Assembly: GCA_009698815.1 (NCBI GenBank)
Contig: WLPJ01000006.1
Span: forward strand, 55,081-119,080
From: Actinomycetota bacterium
GTDB taxonomy: Bacteria > Actinomycetota > Actinomycetes > Nanopelagicales > Nanopelagicaceae
Length of the DNA stretch: 64,000 nucleotides
Reading direction: 5' to 3'
The notes under the pieces are model-generated. The model ran no database searches, was not told where the DNA came from, and saw only the letters and a program-made list of their open reading frames with translations. Positions within the stretch are counted from its first letter, which is position 1. Every line of letters starts with the position of its first letter. Positions 36,013 through 53,237 of the stretch are shown here, one piece after another. Made by a program: the position numbers and the translations under genes.

Positions 36013-36198
36013 TCCTCCTAGGAATTCAACGGGGCAGGGATCGCCCCTTGCGGTGGGGAAAGCATTCCATTTAACCTGCAAAAAGGCGCTACCAATTTCA
36101 AACTATTTTCGAAAGCATTGCTCTTAGATCCCATCATCCAAGATGGCTATGGCCCCAGATCTACTTTTGAGAGCCAGTAAAGGCCAACGCCGAGTCCA

Positions 36199-36624
36199 TT
36201 AAGAGCGCAACATCAAGTGATTCCTGGATCGGCAGTACCCAAACGTCCTGCCCACTAATTTAACAATCAGGCCAACCAGAATAAAGAGCAGACCTAAGGG
36301 CAGGCTGGCCATTAAAAACCAGAGATAACCACCGCCACCTGAGCCCTCATCAAACATCGACCCACCCTTGATAACCGAATATAAGAAAGCACAAATAATC
36401 GGAAATACTGCAATGAGCAGACCGGCTCGAATGAATGAGAATCTCTTCACGTAATAAATGATAAACAGGCCACCATTCAATAACCCCAAAAATAGGATGA
36501 AAAACACGGCCATAAATCCGTTAGCGCTTCTGTTACCCGTTGTGACCATGTTGGAGAAGTAGGTGTAGATACAGATTGCGTTAATAAAGAGGGCGATCAG
36601 TAAGACAATCCTTTTGAAAGACAT
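36199..36624 (-). CDS. Hypothetical 4-TM membrane protein
   Basis: 141-aa hydrophobic ORF; ATG 6 nt after TACCCT (leaderless). Confidence 0.65.
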   Translation of the reverse strand: MSFKRIVLLIALFINAICIYTYFSNMVTTGNRSANGFMAVFFILFLGLLNGGLFIIYYVKRFSFIRAGLLIAVFPIICAFLYSVIKGGSMFDEGSGGGGYLWFLMASLPLGLLFILVGLIVKLVGRTFGYCRSRNHLMLRS

Positions 36625-36753
36625 ATCGTAAGGGTAGGGCTAAAGATGAAAGATAAAGGGTTTTTTGAATCGGCCCCGGTGATTAAAAGATATCCACACG
36701 AAAAGAAAAAAACTAAATCAGTTTTCGTAACTGACTTAGGTTCAGCCTTGCGT

Positions 36754-36827
36754 ACCGCTGTAGCTCATTTGATAGAGCACCCCACCAACTATGGGAAGTG
36801 TAGCGGGTTCGATTCCCGCCAGTGGTA
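36754..36827 (+). tRNA. Degenerate tRNA-like gene (apparent anticodon AAC)
   Basis: Acceptor ACCGCTG/CAGTGGT; TA; D arm GCTC-ATTTGATA-GAGC; anticodon arm CCCCA-CCAACTA-TGGGA; T arm GCGGG-TTCGATT-CCCGC. Non-canonical C33, T37, GA in the D loop and a 6-nt variable region. Confidence 0.6.
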
Positions 36828-36837
36828 CGCACACCAA

Positions 36838-36873
36838 GTGGCCTCACGCTAGTTACGTGGGGCCACTTTGCAT
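36838..36873 (+). terminator. Intrinsic terminator after the tRNA-like gene
   Basis: GTGGCCTCACG-N7-CGTGGGGCCAC, an 11-bp stem followed by TTTGCATTT. Confidence 0.6.
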
Positions 36874-36888
36874 TTGTGACTCTGCGTA

Positions 36889-37093
36889 ACTACCCGCAAT
36901 TAATATTGTGAATATCGGCAAACATATCCGCCTCTCTCCCGGGGCGCTCCAGCACATAATCACCACACACCTGACAGAAGGCATGAAAGTAATAAACCCC
37001 AAGCTCTTCCATCCATTTGTAGTCATAGATAAATGAGACAACAACGGCGCCAAAATCTGGCAGTGACCGATGCCCGCGCGCACGATGGGCCGC
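36889..37093. repeat. 205-bp direct repeat, left copy
   Basis: Matches 50869-51073 with 5 mismatches counted by eye (36900, 36904, 36905, 36966, 37076). Confidence 0.95.
36890..37093 (-). pseudogene. Duplicated 3' fragment of the hypothetical gene 50870-51436
   Basis: Encodes ...AHRARGHRSLPDFG...FCQVCGDY...HNINCG-stop; no start and no 5' part. Confidence 0.85.
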
Positions 37094-37152
37094 GCTTTGT
37101 GGAGCTGACGAATTTACAGGAAACGGTGCATTACGCCCTAAACAAACATCTG

Positions 37153-38343
37153 CTATTTCACTCCAAGAAGATGTTCAAGTGCTAACTGATTTAATCTGAC
37201 AAAAGCAAAACCTTTACCGTTGAAATATTCATCCGTGTTAAATTCTTCAAATGAACTTTGGTCCGCAATTAGTTCATTGTAATTTTCACCTGGGTTTAAT
37301 GTAGGTATACTAATTTCAGATACTCTTGAATTCCGTAACGCTTGCTGAACTGCTGGATCCGCACGGAATACTTTGGAGCGCTCCTTGAAAATCAGATAGT
37401 TCCTCATATTTGCACGTGCAGAATCCCAAACTCCTTCGTAATCTTCGGTACGACTTGGCTTGTAATCGAAATGTCGAGGACCGTCATAAGCTGGAGTTCC
37501 ATTAGGACCAGAATTTTCCAGAAGATCAATAAGCGTGAAAGCATTCATAAGATCGCCGTGTCCAAATACTAAATCCTGATCATATTTGATTCCCCGTTGC
37601 CCGTTTAGATCTATATGAAATAACTTCTTATGTTCGATGGCCTGGGCAATTCCTGCTGTGAAGTTTAATCCTGCCATTTGCTCGTGCCCGACTTCAGGAT
37701 TTACCCCAAAAAGCTCAGGTCGATCTAGCGTGTTAATAAAAGCTATTGCATGACCTAGCGTCGGCAATAATATGTCGCCCCGTGGCTCGTTTGGCTTTGG
37801 CTCAATTGCAAATCTAATGTCATATTTTTTGTCTGTTACATATTCACCAAAGATGTTTAGCGCTTCTCTATATCTTTCAATGGCACCCGAAACATTCTTA
37901 GCATGGTCGTATTCCGCACCTTCACGGCCACCCCACATTACAAATGTCTTTGCGCCTAATTCAGCGCCGAGGTCTAGCTGTCGAAATGCTTTCCGCAATG
38001 AAAAGCGGCGCACCCCGCGGTCATTGGAAGTAAATGCACCATCTTTAAAGACGGGAGCGCTAAAGAGGTTAGTGGTGACCATCGGTATCTCTATCCCGGT
38101 CTCTGCCAGGATTTTCTTTAGCCGTTGGATCATGGTCTCTCGCTGCTGATTTGATGAGCCAAACGGGAATAAATCATCATCGTGGAAGGTCAGGCCATAC
38201 GCCCCAATTTCGGCCAATTTGGTCACGACATCCTCTATTTCAAGCCCTTTTCGAGTCGGCCCCCCAAAAGGGTCGGTGCCGTTATACCCCACGGTCCATA
38301 GCCCAAAGGAAAACTTGTCAGCCTTGGTCGGTGTCAGATACAT
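37153..38343 (-). CDS. xylA: Xylose isomerase (Actinobacteria-type)
   Basis: [53 protein letters not shown]. Start ATG 38343 with a GAGG RBS. Confidence 0.95.
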
Positions 38344-38587
38344 CTTGGACCTCAATCCTTTTTCAATAATTTGTTGATTAAAACTACAAACTAGCATAAG
38401 GGGAAGAAATATGGAATTTACCGGATGCCGCCACAATTGAACATGAGCGTCGATTGCCCAAATTACCTTGAAATCAAGCCCCATAGGATGAGATTTGTCG
38501 TATTTTGCCTTATATAGGTAAATAGCGCCACTCAGGATTATTTAAGTTTTTGGCGAAACTTGCGATAAATACTTGCCAATCTCTTGC

Positions 38588-38609
38588 ATATGTTGTTGCT
38601 TCAACATAT
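38588..38609. promoter_or_regulatory. Candidate operator in the xylA/ABC divergent region
   Basis: Perfect inverted repeat ATATGTTG-N6-CAACATAT. Confidence 0.5.
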
Positions 38610-38689
38610 TGTTTGCTCAAATGAATCGAGAGGTCTCCCGGCTTCCAGGTCAAACTGAAGAAATTAGATAGAAAGGGATAGGTGCCAAA

Positions 38690-40297
38690 ATGAGTTTTCC
38701 CACTGCTTTATCGACTACTCGGTCGGCCCCGATCATCCTTGATATTCGCCAAATTAGTAAGAGTTACCAGGGAGTGGCTGCACTTGAAAACGCGAGTCTT
38801 CAGGTTCGAAAAGGTGAAATCCATGCCGTCTTGGGCGGCAATGGAGCTGGCAAATCTACTTTGATTGGAATCCTCTCCGGAGTTACGCAACCAGATTCTG
38901 GAGAGTTTCTTCTAGAAGGCTCTGCACTAGCACCTCGAAATCCAAGGGACGCGATTAAGTCAGGTATTACCACTATCTACCAAGAGCTCTCTTTGGTACC
39001 CGCACTTACGACACTTGAAAATATCTTTCTAGGCCGGGAATTAATTATTGAGCGAGCAGGCATGAAGGTATTGCTAGATCGCAAAAAAATGAAAAATGAA
39101 GTTATTGAACTTGCCCAAATATTTGGAATATCAAAGGATGAGCTTGATATCCCGATTAGCGAATTTGGAGCTTTGAAAAAGAAAGTCATCGAGATTGTTA
39201 AAGCTTTGACTTTTGATGCTCGGATCTTAATTCTAGACGAACCAACGTCTGGCTTGGAAGAAGAAGAACGCCTTCACTTATTTGATCATATGCGTAATTT
39301 GCGTAGCAGAGGTGTCGGTCTCATTTGGGTAACCCATCATTTAGATGAACTTCATGGCCTTGCAGACGTTGCCACCATTTTCCGTGACGGCAGAACGCTT
39401 GAATCTCTAAATTTAGAAAATTCCACAGTAGGAGAAATTACAAACTTAATGTTTGGAATCCAATCAAATGAAGCAGGCTTGAGAACCAAAAATGATCGTT
39501 TACAAAAAGATGATAAGTCCAATAGACCTGAGGTTCTAAGTCTGCATGCAGTAAGTCGAGCAGGCGTGCTTCGAGATATCTCTTTTAGCTTGCATGCTGG
39601 TGAAGTTATAGGGATATCTGGATTGGCGGGCGCCGGCAGAACAGAGTTAGCAAGAGTGATCATGGGAATTGATACCCGAACTTCTGGTCAGATTTTTTTA
39701 AAGGGCAAGGAAGTTAATTTCAAATCATCTGCTTTTGCCTACAAAGCGGGTATCGCAATGCTCCCGGAAGATCGGAAGCAACTAGGAATTATTTCTGGCT
39801 TATCGGTTGCAGAAAACATTTCAATTTCTAATTTGTCAAGTGTCAGCAGGTTCGGATTTATCATAAGCCGGAAAAAAGAACGCGAATTAGCGACCAAGTA
39901 TAAAGAGATACTTTCAATTCGAACTCCAAGCGTAAATCAAAAGATAAACAATCTCAGTGGCGGAAGCCAGCAAAAAGCAATTGTCGCAAGATGTCTAAAT
40001 TCCAAGCCATCAGTTTTAATCATTGATGAGCCAACACAAGGTGTTGATGTTGCAGCAAAAACCGAAGTCCACGAACTTATTCGAGATTTTACCTCGAAAG
40101 GTGGGGCTGCAATAGTGATTGCATCTGAAATCCAAGAACTTCTAGAACTTTCTCACGAGATTTTAGTGCTCAGAAATGGCTCCATAGTAGGAAGAATTGA
40201 AAATGTTCAGAACTCTATAGAAAAGTCCCGAGTAGTAGAAATCAAAGCGGAAGTACTTGCTTTATCTGCCGGAAAAAGGTTAAAAAATGAAATTTAA
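38690..40297 (+). CDS. Monosaccharide ABC ATP-binding protein (CUT2, RbsA-like)
   Basis: Two NBDs: GGNGAGKS, LDEPT, LSGGSQQK, DEPTQGVD. Confidence 0.93.
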   Translation: MSFPTALSTTRSAPIILDIRQISKSYQGVAALENASLQVRKGEIHAVLGGNGAGKSTLIGILSGVTQPDSGEFLLEGSALAPRNPRDAIKSGITTIYQELSLVPALTTLENIFLGRELIIERAGMKVLLDRKKMKNEVIELAQIFGISKDELDIPISEFGALKKKVIEIVKALTFDARILILDEPTSGLEEEERLHLFDHMRNLRSRGVGLIWVTHHLDELHGLADVATIFRDGRTLESLNLENSTVGEITNLMFGIQSNEAGLRTKNDRLQKDDKSNRPEVLSLHAVSRAGVLRDISFSLHAGEVIGISGLAGAGRTELARVIMGIDTRTSGQIFLKGKEVNFKSSAFAYKAGIAMLPEDRKQLGIISGLSVAENISISNLSSVSRFGFIISRKKERELATKYKEILSIRTPSVNQKINNLSGGSQQKAIVARCLNSKPSVLIIDEPTQGVDVAAKTEVHELIRDFTSKGGAAIVIASEIQELLELSHEILVLRNGSIVGRIENVQNSIEKSRVVEIKAEVLALSAGKRLKNEI

Positions 40298-41300
40298 GAA
40301 TTTCTTTTTTCGAAGTGTCTCCATAACTGGAGTTCCAATTTTCGGTCTCCTAATCTTAATCGTGGCACTTTTTCAATTTGTTGTACCAATTTTTAATGCA
40401 ACAGTTGGCGACTACATCACAAATCTTGTTCCTGTTCTTTTACTCACCGTGGGTGCCGCAATTGTGATAATTGGTGGATCTATCGATCTATCAATCGGTA
40501 CAGTTTGTGGATTAAGTGCGGGAATAACAATGTGGACATTGGCGTCTGGTCTTCCAACCGCTTTATCAATTTTACTAGGCGTAGCGACAGGTACATTTTT
40601 TGGACTTCTCAATGGATTTCTTATTACAAAATTTGGAATAAATGACTTCATCGCGACATTAGCGACACTCAATATTTCCGGGGGATTACTCATCGTGTTG
40701 AGCCAGGCTACAGAGCTCTACGGAGCAGAATCTGAGTTTTTTACCTCTTTGGTATACGGCAGTTTCTTTGGTATCCCCACCTCATTTTTCATCGCGGGAG
40801 CAATCATTCTCTTGATGCAATTTTTGTTGCTCAAAACAATCTTGGGCAGAAGAATTTTTGCAATGGGAAATAGTGGAGCCGCTGCAAATGTCGCGGGAAT
40901 CAATGTTCGCAATGTAAAACTAGCGACCTTCGTATTATCAGGGACTCTGGCTGGTTGTGCTGGCGTGCTTTTGGCTTCAAGACTTGGTGGAGTTCAAGCC
41001 TTTCTGGGTCTTGGCTACGAATTTACGGCAATCGCAGGTGCGGTCGTAGGTGGCGTAAGTCTGGCAGGTGGACGAGGTTCGGCGGCGGCTGCCCTGGCTG
41101 GTGGTCTCTTCATCGGAACATTGGCACAAGGATTGCAACTTATAGGTGTCGAGCCAATCTTTTTCGGAATTGTGAGTGGTTTAGCACTGATTATCGGCGT
41201 CATCTTTGACCAAAAAATTCAGGATATTGGTCAATTGCGTTCGAGATTTGATAGCCGTGTTTTAGCACAACCTCCTCGAAAGGAGGGAGATCATGGCTAA
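40287..41300 (+). CDS. Monosaccharide ABC permease (CUT2)
   Basis: GSIDLSIG, FIATLA, GNSGAAANVAGI, YEFTAIAGAVVGG. Confidence 0.9.
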   Translation: MKFKNFFFRSVSITGVPIFGLLILIVALFQFVVPIFNATVGDYITNLVPVLLLTVGAAIVIIGGSIDLSIGTVCGLSAGITMWTLASGLPTALSILLGVATGTFFGLLNGFLITKFGINDFIATLATLNISGGLLIVLSQATELYGAESEFFTSLVYGSFFGIPTSFFIAGAIILLMQFLLLKTILGRRIFAMGNSGAAANVAGINVRNVKLATFVLSGTLAGCAGVLLASRLGGVQAFLGLGYEFTAIAGAVVGGVSLAGGRGSAAAALAGGLFIGTLAQGLQLIGVEPIFFGIVSGLALIIGVIFDQKIQDIGQLRSRFDSRVLAQPPRKEGDHG

Positions 41301-42294
41301 TCAAAGGTTTAACATTTCGATGAAAAAATTTTTGTCGGATCCTATTTTAGGTGTAATTATATTATTACTTCTCGTTGGTGGAGTTGCCTCATTTACTGTT
41401 GAAGTTTTCTTTACCTTACAAAACTTTACAAATTTCTTGAGTGGCAGCTATTTTGTGATGTTGTTAGCGATGGGAATGACCGTAGTTCTTATATCCGGCG
41501 GTATTGATTTATCTATTGGCGCCGTCATGGCCCTCTGTGCAGGAATTGTTGCAAAATTGGCCTTGCAAGGAATGTCGGTACCCTTAGTAATAGTTTGCGC
41601 ACTAGCAGTCGGCGCTTTCGTTGGTTGTCTCAATGGACTTCTTGTCACAGTTGTTGGCTTACCTGACTTCATAGCAACATTGGCAATGTCGGCTTTTGCC
41701 ACTGGAATTCTATTCATCTGGACTAAAGGCACCCCGATCGTGGGCTATATGGATGAGACTTACAAGCAAATCGGTGGGCTAGCTCCGATTTATCGCGAAG
41801 TGACAGTTCCTATGGTGATAGCAATAGTCGTTGCATTCGCTTTGGGAGCGATGTTGAAAAAAACCAAATTTGGAGTTCATCTTTTTTCAGTAGGAAGTAA
41901 CAGATTAGCGACGCGACAATCTGGAATAAATGTTACAAACATACGAATCTTGGCTTACGTGATTTCTGGAGTTTGTGCTGCTCTCAGTGGCATCATCATG
42001 GCTGGTCGAAATACCACGGTGCCACCAGATCTAGGGGGCGGTTATGAGGTTCTTGCAATAGCCGCCGCACTCATCGGAGGCGCAAGTCTGATGGGTGGTC
42101 GCGGACGAATACTGGGAGCAATACTGGGTGAAGTAGTACTTGCCATGACGATAAATATCATCAACCTTTTAGGTGTTCCGTCAAGCTATCAGAAAATTTT
42201 TATTGGTGGAATTTTGCTACTGGCAGTTTTAGTGAACCAGCTTGTCATCTCCTCGCGAACGAAAATATTGATGCGAAGTACAAATAAAAAATAA
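41293..42294 (+). CDS. Monosaccharide ABC permease (CUT2), second
   Basis: GGIDLSIG, PDFIATLA, GSNRLATRQSGI, YEVLAIAAALIGG. Confidence 0.9.
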   Translation: MANQRFNISMKKFLSDPILGVIILLLLVGGVASFTVEVFFTLQNFTNFLSGSYFVMLLAMGMTVVLISGGIDLSIGAVMALCAGIVAKLALQGMSVPLVIVCALAVGAFVGCLNGLLVTVVGLPDFIATLAMSAFATGILFIWTKGTPIVGYMDETYKQIGGLAPIYREVTVPMVIAIVVAFALGAMLKKTKFGVHLFSVGSNRLATRQSGINVTNIRILAYVISGVCAALSGIIMAGRNTTVPPDLGGGYEVLAIAAALIGGASLMGGRGRILGAILGEVVLAMTINIINLLGVPSSYQKIFIGGILLLAVLVNQLVISSRTKILMRSTNKK

Positions 42295-42365
42295 TAGATT
42301 TCTTCTACGTCGGGTAGAAGAATGCACTACAAGGATCATGAAAATGATCGAATGAAAGGATCGGA

Positions 42366-43514
42366 ATGAAAAGTACTATAAAAACAAAGACTTTGGTATT
42401 AGCTGTTATTGCCTCATTGGTGACCTTAACAATGACCGGAAGTGCCGCAAATGCCATAGGAACATTAAAACAAGACGCTCTAACAGGCACTTCGGCGACA
42501 GTTGACACTGCAGCTACAGATGCGGCAATCCGTAAATTGGTAAACGGTCGGACAATTAAGCTCGGCTTTGCTCCTCCGATCCTTTCTGAGGCTTACACCA
42601 TTGCACAACAGGGTGCATGGAACCAGATGAAAGATTACGAGACTCGGTACGGAGTAAAGTGGGTCTGGACAGAGGAAGCACCGCTGAATAATGCCCACTC
42701 CGGTGTGGAAACAACGGGCTTCATTCAGAACTATGTTGCCAAGAAGTATGACGCAGTGTTCGTATGCTCTGCTGCTCCGGCTGCAGTCATGCAACAGCTT
42801 TATAAGCAAGGTTCTGCGAAGGGTGTTGAGTTCTACCAGTTTAACTCAACGGAGCAGTTGAATCAGAAATCTCAAGCAACTGATGCAACAGCTGGCTTAT
42901 CTAGCGTGTCAAACATCAGTTATGACAATCGTTGGCAGTCCGGTGCTTTAGCAGCGCAATACATCGCTAAGGAACTTAAAGGAAAAGGCGAAATTATTAT
43001 GATCCTTGGGCCAGCAGGATCTGACTGGACAAAACTTCGCGAGCAGGGATTTAGAGCTGTCATTAAGAAGTTCCCTGGTCTTAAGATTGTTGGAGCCGCT
43101 GACGGTGGATACGTTCGCGATAAAGGCTTGACTGCTGCGGCAGACTTGTTGACCAAGTATCCAAAAATTAACGCTATCTACGGCGAAAATGAAGATATGG
43201 CACTTGGAGCATCAGCAGCAATCGACGCCGCGCGCTTGAAGCACTGGGATGGCAAGTCAGGAATCATCACTATCGGTGCTGATGGACTTGTTTCCGGTAT
43301 GGACGAAATCCGTAAAGGCAATCTGACTGCAACAGTAAATGTTGGTTATGCCGATATGGGTCGCACCATGATTCGTACCATGTTCGCACACAAAGTACTC
43401 GGCATGGATGTCGCTAAATTCATTCGAGTTCCAACAGTGATCGTCGACAAGAGCAATGTCGATATCTTCCAATCACAAATCAAGGCTGAGTTAGCCACAA
43501 AGGTTAAGTACTAG
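42366..43514 (+). CDS. Monosaccharide ABC substrate-binding protein (RbsB-like)
   Basis: Signal ending ANA; DNRWQSG, REQGF, AIYGENEDMALGA, IGADG. Confidence 0.88.
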   Translation: MKSTIKTKTLVLAVIASLVTLTMTGSAANAIGTLKQDALTGTSATVDTAATDAAIRKLVNGRTIKLGFAPPILSEAYTIAQQGAWNQMKDYETRYGVKWVWTEEAPLNNAHSGVETTGFIQNYVAKKYDAVFVCSAAPAAVMQQLYKQGSAKGVEFYQFNSTEQLNQKSQATDATAGLSSVSNISYDNRWQSGALAAQYIAKELKGKGEIIMILGPAGSDWTKLREQGFRAVIKKFPGLKIVGAADGGYVRDKGLTAAADLLTKYPKINAIYGENEDMALGASAAIDAARLKHWDGKSGIITIGADGLVSGMDEIRKGNLTATVNVGYADMGRTMIRTMFAHKVLGMDVAKFIRVPTVIVDKSNVDIFQSQIKAELATKVKY

Positions 43515-43520
43515 CCAGTA

Positions 43521-43563
43521 GTAGACGCCTGGCGCCGTAGTAATTACGACGCCAGGCATCTAC
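43521..43563. terminator. Long stem-loop after the binding-protein gene
   Basis: 19-bp stem with two C-A mismatches and a 5-nt loop. Confidence 0.55.
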
Positions 43564-43599
43564 ACCCTCAATAAAAAAGGAGTTAGAAGGGGAAATGAA

Positions 43600-45297
43600 A
43601 TGAACAAGTCGGGCACGTTAGATGCGGTTGATGTAGTCATTGTTGGATTAGGTGCTGGTGGTGGTCCCGCGGCAAAGGTATTGAGCGAGGCGGGTTACAC
43701 GGTTATTGGATTTGATAAAGGACCATGGTTGCGTCACGAAGAACACTATTCCGGAGACGAACTTAAGTTCCAAAACCGTAGCTACTTATGGCCAGATGTA
43801 AAACTTATGCCCCGCACTGTTCGCAGCGATGTAAATTCCAAAGCTAGAATTTTCAATTTCTCGCCTGTTCCCTCAAATGTTGGCGGCGGAACTAGCCACA
43901 TGGCTGGATGGACGCCAAGACCTAGACCGTCGGATTTTATTTTTAGAAGTCTCCATGGTGATTTACACGGCGCAAGTTTGGCTGATTGGCCATACCGATA
44001 CGAACATTTGGAACCATATCTCACCAAAGTTGAATGGGAGTATGGAATTTCAGGCTTAACCGGTGCTGAGAAAGGGGCAGGTTTTAGAAGCAAGCCTTAT
44101 CCAAGTGCTCCACTTCCTCCAACTCGATTTGGAAAAGCTTTCTATGACGCTTGCAAAAAACTTGATATTAACGCGTTCCCATTGCCGATGTCTCACATCA
44201 CCAAAGACAATGCATTGGGGCGAGAAGCAATAAATCGCACAAGTTTCTGGAATCAATATGGAGATCCTACGGCGACTCGATCAAGCGTAGCCACGACATT
44301 CATACCTGACGCGATCAAAACAGGAAATTTCGAAGTAAGGGCAAATTCCTTTGTAAAAGAAGTAATTGTTGATGATCAAGGGGTCGCAAAAGGCGTTATC
44401 TATGTAGATGAAGATGGCATAGAATTTCGACAAGAAGCGCGCGTCGTAATTCTTTCATTAGGCTCCATTGAATCTGCAAGATTGATGTTACTTTCTAAAT
44501 CTCGCAGATTCCCAGATGGGTTGGCTAATGATTCAGGACTAGTTGGAAAGAATGCGACATTCCACGAATACATTTTTGCAGTAGGACTTTTTGATAAAGA
44601 CTTTACTGATCCACTCTATGGATTTACCGGAAATTATCAAAGCGGTGGGTCAATGGAATTCTATGAAACAGATGAGAATCGTGGCCATATCGGTGGTGGC
44701 ATTATTGCAACCACACAAATTGGTCAACCAATTAACATGATTATGCCAGGCAAGCCTAGTTGGGGTCAGGCTGCAAAAGATTCGGATCGAGATTTCTTCA
44801 ATTACTCAATGAAAATAGGTTTCATCCTTCAGGATATGCCTCAGGAAAGTAATCGAGTTGATTTGGATCCTGATGTGAAAGATATGTGGGGGCTTCCCGT
44901 TGCACGAATTACAAATAAGCCTCACATAAACGACACGGCGATGAGCCGCTGGCAGATCAACAAAAATGTCGAAATCCTTGAGGCAGCCGGCGCTATTCGC
45001 ACTATGCCGGTTTATCTGGGCGATGAATTCACTGGAAATTCCTGCCATCAGCAAGGTTCTGTGCGTATGGGAGTAGATCCTAGAAAGTCTGTACTAAATG
45101 AATGGGGTCAAGCTCATTCTGCTGAGAACGTTTTTGTATTAGATGGTGCAGGTTTTCCAACCGCAATGGGAGTAAATCCAACTCTAACAATCATGGCTCA
45201 CTCTTGGCGCTGTGCTGATTACATCGCCAAAGTTTATCTAAAGGGCAGAACTGAGAAAACTGTTCTTGAACCGCTTAAAAATTTAGGGAGGAAATAA
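43600..45297 (+). CDS. GMC family flavoprotein oxidoreductase (gluconate 2-dehydrogenase alpha-like)
   Basis: VGLGAGG, GGGTSHMAG, HQQGSVRMG, NPTLTI (His/Asn catalytic pair). Confidence 0.9.
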   Translation: MNKSGTLDAVDVVIVGLGAGGGPAAKVLSEAGYTVIGFDKGPWLRHEEHYSGDELKFQNRSYLWPDVKLMPRTVRSDVNSKARIFNFSPVPSNVGGGTSHMAGWTPRPRPSDFIFRSLHGDLHGASLADWPYRYEHLEPYLTKVEWEYGISGLTGAEKGAGFRSKPYPSAPLPPTRFGKAFYDACKKLDINAFPLPMSHITKDNALGREAINRTSFWNQYGDPTATRSSVATTFIPDAIKTGNFEVRANSFVKEVIVDDQGVAKGVIYVDEDGIEFRQEARVVILSLGSIESARLMLLSKSRRFPDGLANDSGLVGKNATFHEYIFAVGLFDKDFTDPLYGFTGNYQSGGSMEFYETDENRGHIGGGIIATTQIGQPINMIMPGKPSWGQAAKDSDRDFFNYSMKIGFILQDMPQESNRVDLDPDVKDMWGLPVARITNKPHINDTAMSRWQINKNVEILEAAGAIRTMPVYLGDEFTGNSCHQQGSVRMGVDPRKSVLNEWGQAHSAENVFVLDGAGFPTAMGVNPTLTIMAHSWRCADYIAKVYLKGRTEKTVLEPLKNLGRK

Positions 45298-45300
45298 AAT

Positions 45301-46062
45301 ATGATCTCGAAATCTGAGTGGGAAATTGTTCCCCTAACTATCGATCCGGACTCAAGTAAAAAGCTTTTCTTTACTGATCATGAGTGGGAAACTATTGAAG
45401 CCGCAGCCGCACGAATCATTCCAACTGATCATGATCCTGGAGCAAAAGAAGCACGAGTAATCGTCTTCATCGATCGTTACCTATCAGGAATTGACTACGT
45501 GTATGCCGCGGCAGATGGAAGTGGTTTTTTGCGAATGTCTGGACGAGATGCGACTGCCGCTAGAGTCAGTAATGAAATATTTAAGGCTATGTACCGTGAA
45601 GGAGTCAAAGACTTAGATCACTTAGCGGGTGAATTTGGATCCAAAAATTTTAAGGAGAGTCCTGCAGAGACTCAAGATAGAATTTTGGAGAAGTTAAGTG
45701 GTAGGCCGAAACCAGAACCTATTCGTTTTGATATCCACGAAGTTTATTACTCTCGCCTTCAAGGAAATACCGATCAAGATAAAACTTTCTTCGACACTCT
45801 TTGTTTGCATGTTCGCCAAGGTTTTTATTCTGATCCGGTATATGGCGGTAACAAAGATCAAATTGGCTGGAAAGTCATCGGCTTCCCTGGTCCAAAGTCC
45901 CTCAAAGACACAATTGATGGTACCTACACAACTGACCCGTACTTCGTCCATGACGTGAGTTGGCCAGAACTCCTGTTGGACTTCAAGGGCGTTGCAGTAT
46001 GCAAAGTTTCGTGTGCCACCGAAGGAGGTGTCTGCTGCGGGAAATTAGAGATAGAGAGTTAG
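45301..46062 (+). CDS. Gluconate 2-dehydrogenase subunit 3 (gamma)-like protein
   Basis: AAAARIIPTD..PGAKEARV..FIDRYL, GFYSDPVYGGN, GWKVIGFPG; no twin-Arg signal. Confidence 0.88.
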   Translation: MISKSEWEIVPLTIDPDSSKKLFFTDHEWETIEAAAARIIPTDHDPGAKEARVIVFIDRYLSGIDYVYAAADGSGFLRMSGRDATAARVSNEIFKAMYREGVKDLDHLAGEFGSKNFKESPAETQDRILEKLSGRPKPEPIRFDIHEVYYSRLQGNTDQDKTFFDTLCLHVRQGFYSDPVYGGNKDQIGWKVIGFPGPKSLKDTIDGTYTTDPYFVHDVSWPELLLDFKGVAVCKVSCATEGGVCCGKLEIES

Positions 46063-46116
46063 CACCGGGGATAAAAAAGAAAATAAATTAATTTCAAACT
46101 AACGAAAGGGCATAAA

Positions 46117-46845
46117 ATGTCAACGCATCAAGAGAAACTGGATAAGTATGTGGATCGTTCCAACAGAATTATCCCAAACAAGATTGATCTAAAGCGAACT
46201 GTTGTTCACTGCTTGGATATTCAAAATCTTTGCCTATCCAAGAAAGGCTCTGACTACGTAGAAAGCGTGGGAGGAGCGCCTTCAGGAGAAGAAACGTTAG
46301 TTCAAGCAAAAAAGGTTTTGGATTTAGCGAGAGAAAAAGGAATCACTGTCAATTGGTCTATGTGGGGTATGGACCCAAATGGCTATGACATCGGAATTTG
46401 GGGATTGAAGTATCCATCTTGGCGTAAGCCAGATTCACCTTTTAATCACGGAACATTCGATGGTGCCCTCTGTGACGGGTTTGTACCGGCTAAAGGTGAG
46501 GCTCTATTGAAAAAACATCGTAATAGCAGCTTCTTTGAAACTGCATTTAATTCATGGCTACTCGAGGCAAAATGTGAATATTTAGTTATCAATGGATCAT
46601 CTACTGGTAATTGCGTACCCACAACTGCACGCGATGGTTTTGAATTGGGATATAAAGTCATCGTACTTGCCGACTCTGGAACTGCGATTCCTCTAAATCG
46701 TGGAGGTCGCAATCCAGCTTATGACAAAGATACTCCAGAAGGTTACGGTCAATACTGGGAAGGCTTGCGCAACATGCAAGCTCAATACGCTGATGTCATG
46801 TCAACAGCAGAGTTTATTGATCTTGTAAATAATTCATCAAATTGA
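46117..46845 (+). CDS. Isochorismatase/cysteine hydrolase family protein
   Basis: LDIQN, KHRNSSF, STGNCVPTTARDG: Asp-Lys-Cys triad pattern. Confidence 0.85.
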   Translation: MSTHQEKLDKYVDRSNRIIPNKIDLKRTVVHCLDIQNLCLSKKGSDYVESVGGAPSGEETLVQAKKVLDLAREKGITVNWSMWGMDPNGYDIGIWGLKYPSWRKPDSPFNHGTFDGALCDGFVPAKGEALLKKHRNSSFFETAFNSWLLEAKCEYLVINGSSTGNCVPTTARDGFELGYKVIVLADSGTAIPLNRGGRNPAYDKDTPEGYGQYWEGLRNMQAQYADVMSTAEFIDLVNNSSN

Positions 46846-46860
46846 TGGTGGGGGAGGTGA

Positions 46861-46894
46861 GCTACCTCGAAGTTGTTTACAACTTCGAGGTAGC
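46861..46894. terminator. Perfect 16-bp inverted repeat between the hydrolase and AKR genes
   Basis: GCTACCTCGAAGTTGT-TT-ACAACTTCGAGGTAGC. Confidence 0.6.
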
Positions 46895-46928
46895 AAACTT
46901 TCAGTGAATTGGAAGGAGGTGTTTGCGT

Positions 46929-47927
46929 ATGTCTAAAATTTCAGTAAGAGCGAAATTTGGTGGACAGAACTGGGATTCAACGATCTTGGGTTTTGGAACC
47001 GTGCCTCTAGGTAATTTTGGCAAGCCTATGGATTCTTCCACTGCTCATAATTTGATTGAAAGAGCCTGGGATGACGGAGTGCGTTTTTTCGATACTGCCC
47101 CTATGTATGGACACGGGCTAGCGGAATATCGTTTAATGGATTTTCTACTCAACAAGAAAAGGGAAGATTATCAATTAGTAACAAAGGTAGGGAGAACGTT
47201 ACTTCCAGCAAAACCTGGAACTTTCGATTCTGCTCCTTGGGTTGATACACCCCCATTTAAAATTGAATTTGATTACTCTTATGACGGCGTTATGCGTCAA
47301 GTTGAAGATAGCCTGCAGAGATTAGGCACATACTATTTAGATGTCGTATTGATTCACGACACAGATAGATGGACTCATGGAGATGATTACCAAGCAAGAT
47401 TCGATGAAGCGGTTGCTGGGGCAGCTAAAGCGCTTGTCAAATTGAGAGATGAAAAAGTAGTAAAGGCTATAGGGTTTGGAGTAAATGAAGTTGATGTTTG
47501 TTTGAGCGCTTTAGATCAAGTAGATGTCAATGCATTTTTAATCGCTGGCACTTACACATTGTTAAATCAAAGTGCTGGCCGGGAATTGTTACCAAGGTGC
47601 CATGCTCGCGGAGTAGGCATTATCAACGGTCGAGTCTTCGGTTCTGGGATTCTAGCAACCGGTTCAGCAGAGGGTGCCAAATTTGATTATGCGGTTGCTC
47701 CTCGGGAGATTGTCGCAAAAGTGCAAAAATTTGAAGAAGTTTGTAAATCATATGAAATCTCATTAGGTGCTGCAGCAATTCAATTTGCAGCAAGGGGACC
47801 TGCGATAGCAAACGTTTGTATAGGATCGCGAACCATTGAACAACAAACTGAGAGCTATGCCTGGTTTGAACAATCAATACCAGATGAATTTTGGGCAGAG
47901 TTAAAGAAAAAGCAATTGATCGAATAG
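46929..47927 (+). CDS. Aldo/keto reductase (AKR15-like: L-fucose/D-threo-aldose/pyridoxal dehydrogenase group)
   Basis: LGFGTVPLGN, FDTAPMYGHG, TKVGR, FDYSYDG, IHD. ATG 46929 fits the GGAGG spacing. Confidence 0.88.
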   Translation: MSKISVRAKFGGQNWDSTILGFGTVPLGNFGKPMDSSTAHNLIERAWDDGVRFFDTAPMYGHGLAEYRLMDFLLNKKREDYQLVTKVGRTLLPAKPGTFDSAPWVDTPPFKIEFDYSYDGVMRQVEDSLQRLGTYYLDVVLIHDTDRWTHGDDYQARFDEAVAGAAKALVKLRDEKVVKAIGFGVNEVDVCLSALDQVDVNAFLIAGTYTLLNQSAGRELLPRCHARGVGIINGRVFGSGILATGSAEGAKFDYAVAPREIVAKVQKFEEVCKSYEISLGAAAIQFAARGPAIANVCIGSRTIEQQTESYAWFEQSIPDEFWAELKKKQLIE

Positions 47928-47968
47928 CAGCACCACTAATACCAATAACAATGGAGAGGAACTAGAAA

Positions 47969-48367
47969 ATGTTTACGGAGTTAAAACATATTGCGCAGTT
48001 AGCGGAAGAGACTGCTAGTAAAATGGGGCTTGGAGTCGTAGTTAGTATCGTGGATGTCCATGGAAATGCGGCGTTGCTTCATCGGATGGATAAGGCACCT
48101 ATGCATTCACTAGAGATGGCTTTTAGAAAAGCCTATACCGCGGCTACTTTCAACGTTGTCACCGAAGACCTAACTGAAAAAGTTCAGCCGAATGCACCAC
48201 TATTTGGGCTTGCTGTTAATTCCGGAAGCAAATTGATTGCATTCGGTGGCGGTGCTCCATTTATAGTTTCAACAGGTGAACGTTACGGAATTGGAATTTC
48301 AGGTGGTACGACTGAAGAAGATATTGACATAATGCGCGCTGCAGTATCTGCCTTTAATAAACGTTAA
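47969..48367 (+). CDS. GlcG/HbpS family heme-binding protein
   Basis: VSIVDVHGN, RKAYTA, FGGGAP, GIGISGGT...D. Confidence 0.88.
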   Translation: MFTELKHIAQLAEETASKMGLGVVVSIVDVHGNAALLHRMDKAPMHSLEMAFRKAYTAATFNVVTEDLTEKVQPNAPLFGLAVNSGSKLIAFGGGAPFIVSTGERYGIGISGGTTEEDIDIMRAAVSAFNKR

Positions 48368-48368
48368 A

Positions 48369-49394
48369 TTATTCTGCGGAGAATTTATGAATCGTTTTGT
48401 GAAAATATTCCTGATCCGGTTTTAAGACTATCGATTGTAAGTCTGGCAAGACCTGGTTATCTATCACTCGCTGTGTTTCGATGCAGATCGAATTGCCTTG
48501 ACCATATTTAATTCCGTGCCTACCCTTCAAATCTCCCAAACGATTTGCTGAGTAAACTTGCAAGGAAGGTTCAGTGGTTGTTATTGTCATTTTTCGGCCA
48601 CTGGTTGGGTCATAAAGTATTGCTGACTCTGTTAATTCGCCAGTCGTTTTATTCGAAAGAACGAAAGTATTATCAATACCTGGCCAAGGTTCAGTTGGAT
48701 TCGTAGGTAGTGAATGAGCAATTTTGGTAAGCTTTTTAAAATCCATCCCAGATTCGGCACAAGATAAGTACCCACCTGCAGGTAGCAATTGAGCATCCAT
48801 CTTGATTATTTTGTCCGCATTAATCTGCAATTCGTGATCTAGAACGCTAGTTGCACCTGCATCATGAAGGTTCCAATAGATGTGATTTGTTATATTTACA
48901 GGAGTATCTAACGAGGCTTTGGCTGAATATTCGAAAATCAATTCATTTATATTTGTGAGAGAACAAGTAAGCGCAACGGACAAATCTCCCGGATATCCGC
49001 CTTCTCCAGATTTACTCTCATATGAGAACTGCACTGCTTGAGATCCTGCAACTTCACATAATTCGCTCGACCAGAAAACTCTATCAAGTGATTTCTCTTT
49101 ACCTCCGTGTAAGTGGTTTCCCCCTTCATTGACCATCAATTGAAATCTAAGGCGGCCTCCATTGAAAACACCCTTGGAAATTCTTCCCGCAACCCGCCCA
49201 AGAGTGGCACCAAAATAGTTTCCAACATTTATTACATACTCTTCATGAGTATTAAATCCAAGCACAACATTAGAACAATTACCGATCCTGTCTGGGACCA
49301 TTAACTCAATAAGTCGCGCTCCAAAATTGGAAAAAGTGGCCTTCATTCCATTGGAGTTCTCAATTACAAATTCTTTGTTCAGAATCCGAACCAC
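48369..49394 (-). CDS. galM: Aldose 1-epimerase (mutarotase)
   Basis: GRVAGRI, NHLHGG, GYPG, NITNHIYWNL, CIETQ. Confidence 0.9.
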   Translation of the reverse strand: MVRILNKEFVIENSNGMKATFSNFGARLIELMVPDRIGNCSNVVLGFNTHEEYVINVGNYFGATLGRVAGRISKGVFNGGRLRFQLMVNEGGNHLHGGKEKSLDRVFWSSELCEVAGSQAVQFSYESKSGEGGYPGDLSVALTCSLTNINELIFEYSAKASLDTPVNITNHIYWNLHDAGATSVLDHELQINADKIIKMDAQLLPAGGYLSCAESGMDFKKLTKIAHSLPTNPTEPWPGIDNTFVLSNKTTGELTESAILYDPTSGRKMTITTTEPSLQVYSANRLGDLKGRHGIKYGQGNSICIETQRVIDNQVLPDLQSIVLKPDQEYFHKTIHKFSAE

Positions 49395-49406
49395 CTTTTC
49401 TATGGC

Positions 49407-50618
49407 TTAATTAATCTTACTCTTAGTAAATTCTGGACCCGCAGGGTCATATAAAAAATTCATGAATACCAGTTCTGCCGCCCCAAGGACGACTTGGTTT
49501 ACGCCAAGTGCTGCGCGACTGATTCGGACAGACTCGTAACTTGGTTTTAAAGTGTTTATTGCAACAATTTTTTGAACTTTCTTGGTGTCCATACTGTAAA
49601 TAGTTCCCAAAAATCCACCAAGAATAATCAATTCGGGATTTAGCAAGTTAATAAAGTTTGAAATCGCCAATGCCAGATACTCCAACTGTCTTCCGACTTC
49701 ACTTAATACTGCATGAGACTTGGAGGTGCGTAGGGCATAATCAAATTGATCATAATCTGCAATTTTTAAATTTAGTAGAGATAGAAGCTTCTCTCTCGAG
49801 ACCTCTGCTTCCACCGTGCCCACCACATTGGCAGAATCCACACCACCAGTTAATGCAACTCTGGTATGGCCCATCTCGCCTGCATAACCTTTATGACCTC
49901 TCATTAATTGCCCACCGGAAACGATTCCGCCAGCAATACCGCTAGAACCGCCATTGATAAAGACCATATCTTTTATGCCAACACCAGAGCCAAATACCTG
50001 CTCAGCTAAAGTACTTAAGAACGCTTCATTTCCCGCCGAGGTTTTAAACCCTGTGGAGCTTTCAATAAGCTGAATTATAGATACTTCTTTCCATTCCAGG
50101 TGGTGCGAAGATCCAATTAATCCATCTTCTTTCCGAATTAACTCCGGTATAGCAAGACCGATTCCAATAATTTGGAAATTTTCTTTGGAAACACTAGTTA
50201 GACCATCAATGATTGCATTTGTAATTTTTATTGTTTCAGCAATAGTAGGAGCACCAGTTGTTTCAAATCTTGATTGTTTGTGAACATAACCTCCAAGCCC
50301 AATTACCCCAATATTAACTGCATCACTTTCTGGGTTCACAGCTATCGCTATTGCATTTTGATTTGCCACCACCACCGTACTTGGTCGTCCAACTCTTTTG
50401 TTTTTCTTATCCGAAATTTCATTTACTAAACCCTGTGAAGTCAATTCTCCGATTAGTGCAGAGATTGTTGATCGATTAAGCCCAGTTCTTATGGAAAGAT
50501 CTGATCTGGATATAGAGCGTTCATGATGGACGATCTTTAGAACTGTTGAAATATTGAACCGTCTTAAGTCGTCGAGATTATTACCTGCGGACAAATTTCC
50601 CGGTGGCGTAAGCTTCAA
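49407..50618 (-). CDS. ROK family transcriptional regulator (XylR-like)
   Basis: SRSDLSIRTGLNRSTIS HTH, GRPS, GYAGEMGH; the CxCG Zn motif is absent (GGVDSANVVGTVE). Confidence 0.9.
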   Translation of the reverse strand: MKLTPPGNLSAGNNLDDLRRFNISTVLKIVHHERSISRSDLSIRTGLNRSTISALIGELTSQGLVNEISDKKNKRVGRPSTVVVANQNAIAIAVNPESDAVNIGVIGLGGYVHKQSRFETTGAPTIAETIKITNAIIDGLTSVSKENFQIIGIGLAIPELIRKEDGLIGSSHHLEWKEVSIIQLIESSTGFKTSAGNEAFLSTLAEQVFGSGVGIKDMVFINGGSSGIAGGIVSGGQLMRGHKGYAGEMGHTRVALTGGVDSANVVGTVEAEVSREKLLSLLNLKIADYDQFDYALRTSKSHAVLSEVGRQLEYLALAISNFINLLNPELIILGGFLGTIYSMDTKKVQKIVAINTLKPSYESVRISRAALGVNQVVLGAAELVFMNFLYDPAGPEFTKSKIN

Positions 50619-50868
50619 ATTTCCTCCGGTTAATTGCCGTAGATTTTGAACAATAGAATCTTTTAAAAAGTCTGTTAAAGCATCAATAATAGCATGGGCT
50701 GGATCTCGAAACTAGTCAATGTAGACCAGATTATTGGGACTACACGGGCAATTTATCGGGACTCGCATATGATTTTTTGACACTTATAGTTTCGAACACT
50801 TGATACAAATTTTTAATGATCCGAAAGTATCGACAGTTCGCATTAGTGTTTATTTAAAGTTAACGGAG

Positions 50869-51073
50869 ACTACCCGCAACTAACGTTGTGAATATCGGCA
50901 AACATATCCGCCTCTCTCCCGGGGCGCTCCAGCACATAATCACCATACACCTGACAGAAGGCATGAAAGTAATAAACCCCAAGCTCTTCCATCCATTTGT
51001 AGTCATAGATAAATGAGACAACAACGGCGCCAAAATCTGGCAGTGACCGATGCCCACGCGCACGATGGGCCGC
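50869..51073. repeat. 205-bp direct repeat, right copy
   Basis: Begins 1 nt beyond the stop codon of 50870-51436 and matches 36889-37093. Confidence 0.95.
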
Positions 51074-51436
51074 ATCTAGCTCAAGCCCCGCAAGCCCACC
51101 AACTTCGGCCACTGCATCCATCTCCACGACCAACCCACACGTGCAGTGCCATTGCTTACCCGCATAGTTAACGTAACCCCAATGCCATTTCTGGTGCTGC
51201 CACGAATTCAAATTCGCATAATGCAGCCACGCCTTATAGCGCCCGTACTTACGCATTCCGGATTTGCCATCCATCTTGCTGTGCAGTTCCTCTAGCTTTT
51301 CATTTGAAATTGAGACATCGACATAACTCTTCTTATTTCGCTTAGACATAACAAACCAGCCCTTAATGGACCTCATATAGAGACCCGCTCTTCTGGCGGT
51401 GTCTGTCATCGCCAGCAGGTCTTCCTTTAGAACCAC
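50870..51436 (-). CDS. Hypothetical phage-like protein with Cys/His (putative Zn) motifs
   Basis: HCTCG...HRARGH and FCQVYG...HNVSCG; start uncertain (MTDT, MRSI or MSKR). Confidence 0.7.
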   Translation of the reverse strand: MVLKEDLLAMTDTARRAGLYMRSIKGWFVMSKRNKKSYVDVSISNEKLEELHSKMDGKSGMRKYGRYKAWLHYANLNSWQHQKWHWGYVNYAGKQWHCTCGLVVEMDAVAEVGGLAGLELDAAHRARGHRSLPDFGAVVVSFIYDYKWMEELGVYYFHAFCQVYGDYVLERPGREADMFADIHNVSCG

Positions 51437-51520
51437 CGTGCGCGGTTGGCGCGGTTGGTACTAAGCAGCTAAAGGCTTAACGCTTAGTTCTTGACCTACT
51501 TTGAGTATAGACCTAGTGAC

Positions 51521-51542
51521 TGTCAGTTCTCGGTTGTATCTT
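51521..51542 (+). promoter_or_regulatory. PafBC/RecA-NDp-type promoter
   Basis: TGTCAG-N10-TATCTT, ATG 6 nt later. Confidence 0.7.
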
Positions 51543-51548
51543 TGAACT

Positions 51549-51689
51549 ATGAAAGAGAAACCAGAGCAAAAGCAGGGCGATGGTCCTTTCTTTATAGAGG
51601 TTCCCAAGCCAGTAAATCAAATGACACAGGCAGAGAAAGACGCCTTTGTGGATGAGATTCTCAATGCTATTGATGGGGAACATAATTGA
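51549..51689 (+). CDS. Small leaderless protein (46 aa)
   Basis: MKEKPEQKQGDGPFFIEVPKPVNQMTQAEKDAFVDEILNAIDGEHN; its stop overlaps the next start (TTGA). Confidence 0.7.
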   Translation: MKEKPEQKQGDGPFFIEVPKPVNQMTQAEKDAFVDEILNAIDGEHN

Positions 51690-52621
51690 AAAGCTGCCCA
51701 TTGTGTAAATCTAAAACAAGCTTACGAAAAATCGTTTACGGGTACCCAGATGGACCAATAGATGAGAAGAAGTATGCGATAGGTGGCTGTTGTATTTCAG
51801 ATAATGACCCAACGGTTAAATGTATTGAATGTGGATGGGAAGGTGAATTTGTGAACCATATAGGACCTAGACCGATGATTCCAGAATCACCTCAACGAAT
51901 AGATACATCCGTTCTTGAAAGAATTTCAGTAGAAGTCTTATCGGGTATTTCTAAAGAGCAAAGCAAGTTTGCGCCGCTAACTGCTGAGTTAGACGCTACA
52001 TGGGAGAAAATTGCCAAGGAGGCAAAAGAAATAATGGCTATGGGCTACACCGTAGATATTGTTTCTGAAATCCCAGAGATTGAAATCCCTTACCACCCTT
52101 ACCGTGTGATATTTGAAGGATCATCACTTCTGGGTGAATCAAATGGACTTGAGAATTTTATGTTGGCACACGGGAAGCTTTCTGAATTAAGGGATAAGGG
52201 TCGCGCTAAGTGCTATACCCGATGGTGCAAAGCCTGCACTCTTTATCGTTTGCCACTTCAAAATGACGTGACTGGCCATGTTTTAAAAATCTCTTTTCCA
52301 AATGTTATTTCACTTGCCAGTAATATCAACATCGATTGGCGCTGGGAGCGCCCGGATAGTGAATGGGCCAATCAACAGGGTGACCCAGTGAAGGAATATA
52401 AGTCTTTGGTGGAACGTAAGTCCAAGCCTGTCTTTTACGTGCGGCTGGAGTCAGAAGAATACATAAACATGCTGTTGGGAGGGCAAAGCGAAAGAAGTAA
52501 TAGTCGTTTTGTATGGGATTCCCCTGAGGGTATAAGTGTTAAATGTGCTGACTGTGAAAAATGGTTTGCACTCAGCGAAGGCAGGAAATCGCACGATTGC
52601 ACAACTATAACTAGACCATAG
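51686..52621 (+). CDS. Hypothetical protein with terminal Zn-ribbon-like motifs
   Basis: CPLC...IVYGYP...GGCCI...CIEC at the N-terminus; CADC...HDC at the C-terminus. Confidence 0.75.
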   Translation: MKSCPLCKSKTSLRKIVYGYPDGPIDEKKYAIGGCCISDNDPTVKCIECGWEGEFVNHIGPRPMIPESPQRIDTSVLERISVEVLSGISKEQSKFAPLTAELDATWEKIAKEAKEIMAMGYTVDIVSEIPEIEIPYHPYRVIFEGSSLLGESNGLENFMLAHGKLSELRDKGRAKCYTRWCKACTLYRLPLQNDVTGHVLKISFPNVISLASNINIDWRWERPDSEWANQQGDPVKEYKSLVERKSKPVFYVRLESEEYINMLLGGQSERSNSRFVWDSPEGISVKCADCEKWFALSEGRKSHDCTTITRP

Positions 52622-53144: not shown

Positions 53145-53150
53145 TAGATA

Positions 53151-53230: not shown

Positions 53231-53237
53231 CCCTTGA

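Follow-up and report, generated by a model that had tools for sequence, protein, structure and literature searches.

Bacteria of the acI/Planktophila group are among the most abundant in fresh water, and what sets their coexisting strains apart is mainly a handful of flexible islands. How cassettes enter acI genomes, which contain almost no mobile elements, is, to our knowledge, poorly documented. Homology-facilitated illegitimate recombination was reportedly described by de Vries and Wackernagel in 2002, by Prudhomme and colleagues in the same year, and by Meier and Wackernagel in 2003. This type of recombination, with the orphan fragments that accompany it, is known from naturally transformable bacteria and has been invoked for the orphan arrays of type VI secretion systems (T6SS) and rhs genes (PMC5361080). 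Additive islands (GI2-GI4) flanked by tRNA genes were described in 2025 from 84 Planktophila genomes, and the variable cargo listed for them comprises NucS, restriction enzymes, sugar transporters, isomerases/epimerases, and ATP-binding cassette (ABC) systems for oligopeptides and sugars (PMC12817590). Herein, we consider a 64,000-nucleotide stretch of contig WLPJ01000006.1 from a freshwater Planktophila (acI) bacterium of the Nanopelagicaceae (the window), in which a cassette of sugar-related genes lies between an intact, riboswitch-controlled gene, g188, and an orphan copy of the 3' end of that same gene. The locus, which is in a genome region already known as hypervariable, belongs to the already described tRNA-flanked additive islands of Planktophila; what it adds is the anatomy of the junctions and a mechanism that would operate free of an integrase.

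Between 34 and 54 kb of the window there is one direct-repeat family, the two members of which (36889-37093 and 50869-51073, 205 nucleotides each and 13,980 bp from start to start) are identical at 200 of 205 positions (97.6%), an agreement far above chance for 64 kb. The mismatches are at positions 36900, 36904, 36905, 36966, and 37076, three of the five falling in the 17 nucleotides closest to the stop codon, and the alignment gives the homology of both copies sharp edges at either end. When the whole genome (1.35 Mb in 22 contigs) was searched, these two copies were found and no others. The right copy begins 1 nucleotide beyond the stop codon of the minus-strand open reading frame (ORF) 50870-51436, and the left copy is an orphan 3' piece of that gene, coding for residues 120-188 in the numbering of the 188-amino-acid ORF (93% amino acid identity). 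The repeat search and the alignment thereby confirm much of what a sequence-only reading of this DNA had described, namely, 205-bp direct repeats with five mismatches at 36889 and 50869, a repeat end 1 nucleotide past a stop codon (which holds for the right copy), and an intact gene on the right with its orphan 3' fragment on the left, beside a tRNA-like gene. The same is true of its statement that neither integrase nor transposase lies inside: between the copies are 13,775 bp (37094-50868) with 12 ORFs, among which profile searches with Pfam and NCBIfam found neither. Further, inverted repeats of at least 30 nucleotides are absent from 34000-54000 and, with no transposase in the island, the features of a composite transposon or insertion sequence (IS) are thus missing.

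A chimeric joining of strain variants through the repeat might be suspected, given that the source is a 22-contig metagenome-type assembly and that part of the repeat exceeds common k-mer sizes, but such an artifact is hardly credible in light of contigs assembled from other samples. Specifically, contig k141_3430592 (L130 plus L137; related sequences are cited by such L numbers throughout) runs from a peptide-binding-protein gene through the tRNA-like gene, the fragment, and the entire island to the intact g188 and further, and contig k141_1813875 (L129 plus L136) holds both repeat copies and the island, with a different left flank. The repeat copies differ at 9 positions within the former and at 15 within the latter, so that an assembler would have been unable to mix them up. 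Edges and depths were also checked using Logan unitigs (k=31) from four lake metagenomes of three studies, and all four repeat edges had unique unitig words, at equal depth, in 4/4 of them. In metagenome X1, the unitig depth was 45 in the left flank, 42.5 and 40.7 in the island, 41.4 in the 5' part of g188, and 40 in the right flank, while the common core of the repeat reached 73-86, about twice that of flanks and island. Unitig depth alone does not distinguish an integrated island from an empty site plus a circle; the spanning contigs do, and both lines of evidence agree that the island is integrated and present in a single copy. Together, they rule out misassembly and provide the support across both junctions that the sequence-only reading had named as a check, with unitigs at all four edges and single contigs of other assemblies that span everything.

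Several relatives carry the site without the island. In L017/L108, L018/L103, L098, L102, L105, and L116, the tRNA-like gene, a spacer, and an intact g188 are in one piece, and the spacer, which we call T-type, leads directly to the stop codon of g188. With the exception of L116, these sequences come from different species (at least five) at 78-84% nucleotide identity; the closer relative L116 matches the window at 96.4% identity across the left copy, spacer, and tRNA end. A second empty arrangement, in which a choice-of-anchor-I gene is followed by a terminator, a short motif, and g188, occurs in L114, L115, and L106. The insertion claimed earlier is therefore upheld by the comparison with sister genomes, and the ancestral site would have consisted of the tRNA-like gene, the spacer, g188, and an S-adenosylmethionine (SAM)-IV riboswitch.

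As for the origin of what was inserted, the island's GMC gene was sought in 60 congeneric species and was absent, the best match being 35% identical. The 12-gene order is kept in Micrococcales (Cryobacterium, Salinibacterium, Microcella, and Pseudarthrobacter) at 55-83% amino acid identity, and in Cryobacterium L087 it is identical to that of the island. Because the cluster is absent from the 60 congeneric species, yet has the same gene order in Micrococcales, comparative evidence indicates that it is a horizontally acquired insertion. The GC content of the island ORFs is 0.40-0.47, against a genome mean of 0.468 (standard deviation, 0.021), or 1-3 standard deviations lower, and most of their values at third codon positions are in the genome's lowest fifth; the shift from outside to inside, which had been put forward as a check, is thus small. 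A recent direct transfer from high-GC Micrococcales was rejected, as the GC content of the island is slightly under that of the host and not over it, and the immediate donor was probably another low-GC freshwater lineage, to judge from composition. Copies of the island with 80-96% nucleotide identity are present in metagenomes.

These same data bear on the opposite polarity, under which the island and its repeat would be ancestral and the empty-site relatives would have lost the island by deletion between the repeats. Direct repeats of 205 nucleotides delete easily, and the product would be exactly the empty site seen. Nevertheless, we consider this history very improbable, given the absence of the cluster from the 60 congeneric species, the position of its closest full-length syntenic relatives in the Micrococcales, the shifted GC content of the island, and the many independent losses that would be required by empty sites in at least five divergent species and in two contexts.

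The cassette also occurs in other surroundings. Contigs that are 99% identical to window positions 37969-51498 have other right flanks past the riboswitch (L128-L130, L146, and L147). On the left, past the stop codon of the fragment, islands of 99% identity continue into the tRNA-like gene, as in the window, in L135, L137, L139, and L143, into TTTCCGTTAA and then an HD_4 gene in L136, and into yet another sequence in L138. The g188 fragment is missing from the islands of L127 (the same as L131; 96% nucleotide identity) and L133 (94%), in which the xylA side proceeds through about 25 nucleotides to a motif, a terminator, and a choice-of-anchor gene. On the other side, in L131, homology ends within the spacer next to the ROK-family regulator gene, at window position 50719, and a CMAS-type methyltransferase gene precedes g188. 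More distantly, a cluster of xylA, ABC transporter, binding-protein, and GMC genes with 80% nucleotide identity is present in L121/L122, where the flanking genes are those of a different low-GC organism. There, xylA is followed (7892-9343) by the N-terminal remnant of an integrase (PF14659, 34.8 bits), which an IS3 transposase interrupts, with tRNA-Leu(TAA) next in line; this region looks like a decaying classical integrative island with the same cargo, judging from its gene content. A search near the window island found no similarity to this remnant. In L124, xylA (88% amino acid identity) is in an ordinary xylA-kinase locus. The earlier description of a swappable cassette thus stands over evolutionary time, for which exchangeable behavior is supported by the several flanks and by the differences past the fragment among near-identical strains. 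The excision by RecA that was part of it stays putative: an empty site was not found among contigs that encode the exact g188 product, every one of which carries the island, and the depth of the island equals that of its flanks, with no deficit over the island (k=31 unitigs, with no junction-specific words for an empty site or a circle).

The left joint can be placed to within a few nucleotides by comparison with the islands that lack the fragment. Homology of the window to L127/L133 stops within 5 nucleotides of the 37093/37094 joint, running 5 nucleotides (GCGGC) into the repeat. On the coding strand, L127 reads ...CCACAAAGC-GCGGC-GCGCGAGC..., the intact g188 reads ...GAGCTAGAT-GCGGC-CCATCGTGC..., and the window junction reads ...CCACAAAGC-GCGGC-CCATCGTGC...; L133 has ACGGC where L127 has GCGGC. 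The L127 flank and the intact g188 thus have the microhomology GCGGC in common, if, as we infer, a flank of this type was the donor, and because island homology runs exactly into this 5-nucleotide, GC-rich stretch at the point where g188 takes over, the joint reads as illegitimate. At the other end, g188 and its riboswitch (50869-51498, 630 bp) are the sole block present in all relatives, at 72-96% nucleotide identity, as would be expected of a one-sided anchor. The genome encodes RecA and ComEC, competence in the host being putative, and a search of the genome with PF00589 returned only two tyrosine recombinases, both Xer-like, on contigs C20 and C21.

On balance, we think it probable that the cassette was fixed by homology-facilitated illegitimate recombination and that flanks were later swapped, and copies converted, via the g188 3' sequence. 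Incoming DNA would have come from a close relative whose cassette already sat downstream of g188. On the right, the conserved g188 and riboswitch would have served as the homologous anchor, with a crossover further into g188 or the riboswitch, and on the left, the nonhomologous xylA end would have been joined inside the recipient's g188 at GCGGC, 205 nucleotides from the stop codon. Because the illegitimate joint would lie at that distance inside the gene, the recipient's last 205 nucleotides would have been retained as an orphan fragment, a complete g188 being restored on the right; an integrase would be unnecessary. Afterwards, recombination between homologous g188 3' sequences, with gene conversion, would have swapped the left flank and partly homogenized the copies. 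The direction and order of these events, as well as uptake by transformation, are what we infer from the sequences.

Several points weigh against this scenario. We found no donor with this g188 allele immediately behind the island and no fragment to its left, and L131 has the extra CMAS methyltransferase gene between the ROK gene and g188, with a g188 allele that is only 84% identical. The polarity is set by parsimony only, which means that the window-type flank could be the older one and the L127 type its derivative, and a microhomology of 5 nucleotides can occur by chance. Both repeat copies share substitutions that are missing from L114 and L116, which would call for gene conversion after the event unless the donor was very close. 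Natural transformation in acI is itself putative. Finally, a Campbell-type single crossover of a circle that carries the 205-nucleotide segment would yield the same product, indistinguishable in sequence.

Such a crossover is what the sequence-only reading had envisaged: a circle with the cassette and a copy of about 205 nucleotides of the g188 3' end would enter by one RecA-dependent and reversible event. The direct repeats are long enough for it, RecA is present, concerted changes (see below) show that the copies recombine, and the end product equals that of homology-facilitated illegitimate recombination. However, the circle would already have to hold the illegitimate g188-xylA joint, so that the first joint would still need another mechanism; further, the island has no replicon or mobility function, it also occurs without the fragment, and neither the depths nor the contigs with the exact g188 product, as given above, point to an excised state. 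Although it deserves consideration, we regard this route as rather unlikely.

An integrative-element mechanism, the layout of which the sequence-only reading had cited, fares less well. It would require a tyrosine or serine integrase acting on an att site in the g188 3' end, with the integrase since lost or provided in trans (e.g., by XerC/D). An intact gene and a 3' fragment beside a tRNA-like gene are the classic layout of an integrative element, in many strains breakpoints cluster immediately beyond the g188 stop codon, and the homologous cluster of L121/L122 lies beside an integrase remnant and next to a tRNA gene. On the other hand, the island is without an integrase in a genome with only two Xer-like recombinases, the repeat spans 205-214 nucleotides at an identity that varies among strains from 93% to 97.6%, unlike a short exact core, a closely related (96%) island is without the repeat, and the inner joint is in the middle of a gene, at a random-looking position with a mere 5 nucleotides of microhomology. 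A site-specific origin is, in our view, decidedly improbable: no recombinase is evident, and a long, imperfect repeat with a 5-nucleotide joint fits homologous plus illegitimate recombination better.

A related idea concerns the host rather than the cassette. The last 18 nucleotides or so of the ROK-side spacer (50851-50868, with CGTTAACTTTAAAT on the minus strand) match the sequence downstream of the intact g188 in L114, L115, and L106, which we call N-type; beyond them, the spacer has only short exact N-type matches. A motif, CCGTTAAC(T)CTTAAT, is found at module boundaries, at 50852-50865 and 53431-53444 of the window (both on the minus strand) and at C11:15083 elsewhere in the genome. In N-type relatives, it comes after the g188 stop codon, in L127 and L133 it occupies the left island boundary, and it also follows a small conserved ORF (53316-53425) that directly adjoins the riboswitch in L114 and L116. 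The sequence just past the g188 stop, this motif included, could, as a long shot, be a dedicated acI site at which whole operon cassettes are exchanged, worked by an enzyme of the host (XerC/D or one not yet known) and by no cassette-borne recombinase. As a general site, the CCGTTAACTCTTAAT motif (14-17 nucleotides) has three good copies in the genome, too few to judge, and a longer N-type duplication on both sides of the island comes to only about 18 nucleotides by the stop codon plus one exact match of 12 nucleotides, a weak lead. If true, streamlined freshwater Actinobacteria would possess a system of integron-like or pdif-like kind, and the riboswitch-controlled g188 module would serve it as a fixed landmark.

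The homologous exchange that we propose to have followed an illegitimate insertion can be examined in the repeat copies themselves. The two copies agree at 97.6% of positions in the window, at about 96% in L135/L137/L139, and at 93% in L129/L136, while the islands stay 99% identical. At 36966/50946, both copies have C in metagenomes X1, X5, and X8, and both have T in X4. The combination in the assembly, C at 36966 and T at 50946, was found in no single metagenome of the four; the pattern reflects either gene conversion between the copies or a window that is a consensus of mixed strains. When polarized with relatives, the five mismatches give a mixed pattern, compatible with a mosaic or gene-converted left copy. 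Because the identity of the copies varies, 36966/50946 changes in concert, mismatches cluster, and flanks alternate, the comparison indicates ongoing homologous exchange and gene conversion via the g188 3' sequence.

The gene that furnishes the repeat is unusual in its own right. The SAM-IV riboswitch, a full-length match, lies 33 nucleotides upstream of an ATG at 51349 and is about 88% conserved even beside distant g188 homologues. Since the riboswitch covers 51382-51496 and the homologues are 158-161 amino acids long, the ORF 50870-51436 appears to be over-called, and g188 most likely starts at this ATG and has 159 codons. The first 29 or so codons of the longer ORF are riboswitch RNA rather than protein, and gene callers render them as a conserved "N-terminal extension" (EDLLAM..RSIKGWFVMS). 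The family comprises 75 clusters, every one unnamed and all from freshwater acI-type sources, in the alignment of which Cys and His columns are invariant. Searches of PHROG, Pfam, and NCBIfam gave no match, and an AlphaFold model of moderate confidence (predicted local distance difference test score, 74.5) had no match among PDB folds, with a best E-value of 0.4. The earlier characterization of the duplicated gene as phage-like was rejected on these grounds, the family being restricted to acI and having a SAM-IV riboswitch upstream. Instead, the family may have a hitherto unrecognized part in the metabolism of SAM, methionine, or sulfur, and a riboswitch of this type ahead of an uncharacterized Cys/His-rich family offers a lead for the sulfur and methionine physiology of acI.

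All 12 ORFs of the island relate to sugar transport, metabolism, or regulation (Table 1). By their family assignments, they would form a self-contained sugar-utilization cassette, with xylA, a ribose/allose-type ABC importer, a two-subunit flavin adenine dinucleotide (FAD)-dependent sugar dehydrogenase, a hydrolase, a reductase, a mutarotase, and a ROK regulator. The nearest solved relatives of the GMC dehydrogenase are the large subunits of fructose dehydrogenase and FAD-glucose dehydrogenase (E, ~1e-32). Homologues of xylA have 396 amino acids, while the window ORF is open for 443 codons from 38484; the start is probably at 38343, the 443-amino-acid ORF being over-called. A second xylA-like sequence, 65% identical, is on contig C6 (21167-22107), and a xylulokinase gene is not among the island genes.

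Table 1. Features of the locus, in window coordinates
Feature	Position	Strand	Evidence
tRNA-Val(AAC)-like gene; left bound of the variable region	36754..36828	+	ARAGORN; Rfam tRNA, 46.6 bits (gathering score, 29)
T-type spacer with terminator-like hairpin	36829..36888	.	Window 36683-37093 aligns continuously to L017, L018, L098, L102, L105, and L116
Left repeat copy; orphan 3' fragment ("g188 prime") with the final 68 codons and the stop of g188	36889..37093	-	Repeat search; alignment; amino acid identity
Island segment downstream of xylA, 59 nucleotides, common to L127 and L133 (94-96% identical islands)	37094..37152	.	Contig alignments
xylA, xylose isomerase, 396 amino acids (probable start)	37153..38343	-	TIGR02631 xylA_Arthro, 633.4 bits (cut-off, 447)
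Sugar ABC transporter ATPase	38690..40297	+	Pfam
Two ABC permeases (BPD_transp_2)	40287..41300, 41293..42294	+	Pfam; families called on 96-99% identical contigs
Peripla_BP_4 binding protein	42366..43514	+	Pfam; RbsB/allose-type NCBIfam matches below cut-off
FAD-dependent GMC sugar dehydrogenase, large subunit (predicted)	43600..45297	+	Pfam
Gluconate-2-dehydrogenase-subunit-3-like small subunit	45301..46062	+	Pfam
Isochorismatase-family hydrolase	46117..46845	+	Pfam
Aldo/keto reductase	46923..47927	+	Pfam
HbpS/GlcG-like protein	47969..48367	+	Pfam
Aldose 1-epimerase	48369..49394	-	Pfam
ROK-family regulator	49407..50618	-	Pfam; NCBIfam ROK, NagC, and Mlc matches below cut-off
ROK-side spacer	50619..50868	.	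Contig alignments
Right repeat copy; 3' end of intact g188	50869..51073	-	Repeat search; alignment
Intact g188 (most likely extent); 159-amino-acid Cys/His-rich protein, uncharacterized, acI only	50870..51349	-	75 homologue clusters; invariant Cys/His columns; AlphaFold model
SAM-IV riboswitch ahead of g188	51382..51496	-	Rfam RF00634, 54.5 bits (gathering score, 38), full-length

The tRNA-like gene has a counterpart at C19:50017-50090, about 5 kb before the start of the window and 41.8 kb from the first; the two are 78% identical, the upstream hairpin and downstream terminator included. Elsewhere, the genome has genes for tRNA-Val(GAC) and tRNA-Val(TAC) and, on C3, a tRNA-Gly(ACC) call, and in the relatives' copies of the tRNA-like gene the anticodon loop is variable or irregular (ARAGORN "tRNA-???"). 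To the left, a gene for a 141-amino-acid membrane protein (36165-36681) gives way to an opposite-strand DUF4864 gene in strains that are 98-99% identical (L135, L137, L139, and L143). To the right of the riboswitch (51500-64000), nothing is common with relatives except for a DSPc phosphatase homologue in some, and the right-flank genes differ between near-identical strains (L128 and L146 versus L147); the contig ends about 750 bp beyond the window. Relatives thus have only the tRNA-like gene and g188 in common, with both flanks varying, and the fixed position beside a tRNA-like gene with strain-variable cassettes is that of an additive flexible island.

Our results offer a nucleotide-level example of how a complete foreign cassette of 12 genes may come to reside in one species across many lakes, free of an integrase and with its flanks reshuffled. 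They support recombination-driven over element-driven cassette turnover in streamlined plankton, an advance that is incremental rather than surprising. With GI2-GI4 of Planktophila, the locus shares the tRNA or tRNA-like neighbor, the fixed position, and the strain-variable content, and each of the cargo types listed for those islands is present in the window; the part of that account available to us contains no junction anatomy, whereas in the window the boundary is resolved to the nucleotide, with a 205-nucleotide duplication of a riboswitch gene's 3' end and no integrase (PMC12817590). Like the integrative elements that target tRNA genes or gene 3' ends (tyrosine-integrase islands, integrative and conjugative elements, and prophages), it combines an intact target with a partial duplicate and a tRNA-like neighbor. 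Unlike them, it has no integrase, excisionase, or other element-encoded recombinase, nor any evident short exact core, the repeat being long and imperfect and related islands being repeat-free. The closest resemblance in mechanism would be to homology-facilitated illegitimate recombination and to the "displacement" arrays of rhs, contact-dependent inhibition (CDI), and T6SS loci, which likewise combine a one-sided anchor within a conserved gene with a few GC-rich nucleotides of microhomology and leave part of that gene behind as an orphan. In contrast to those arrays, for which the cargo is a toxin-immunity pair, the cargo here is a 13.8-kb set of metabolic operons, a small riboswitch-controlled gene supplies the anchor with its 3' end, and the mechanism is one that we have read from sequence.

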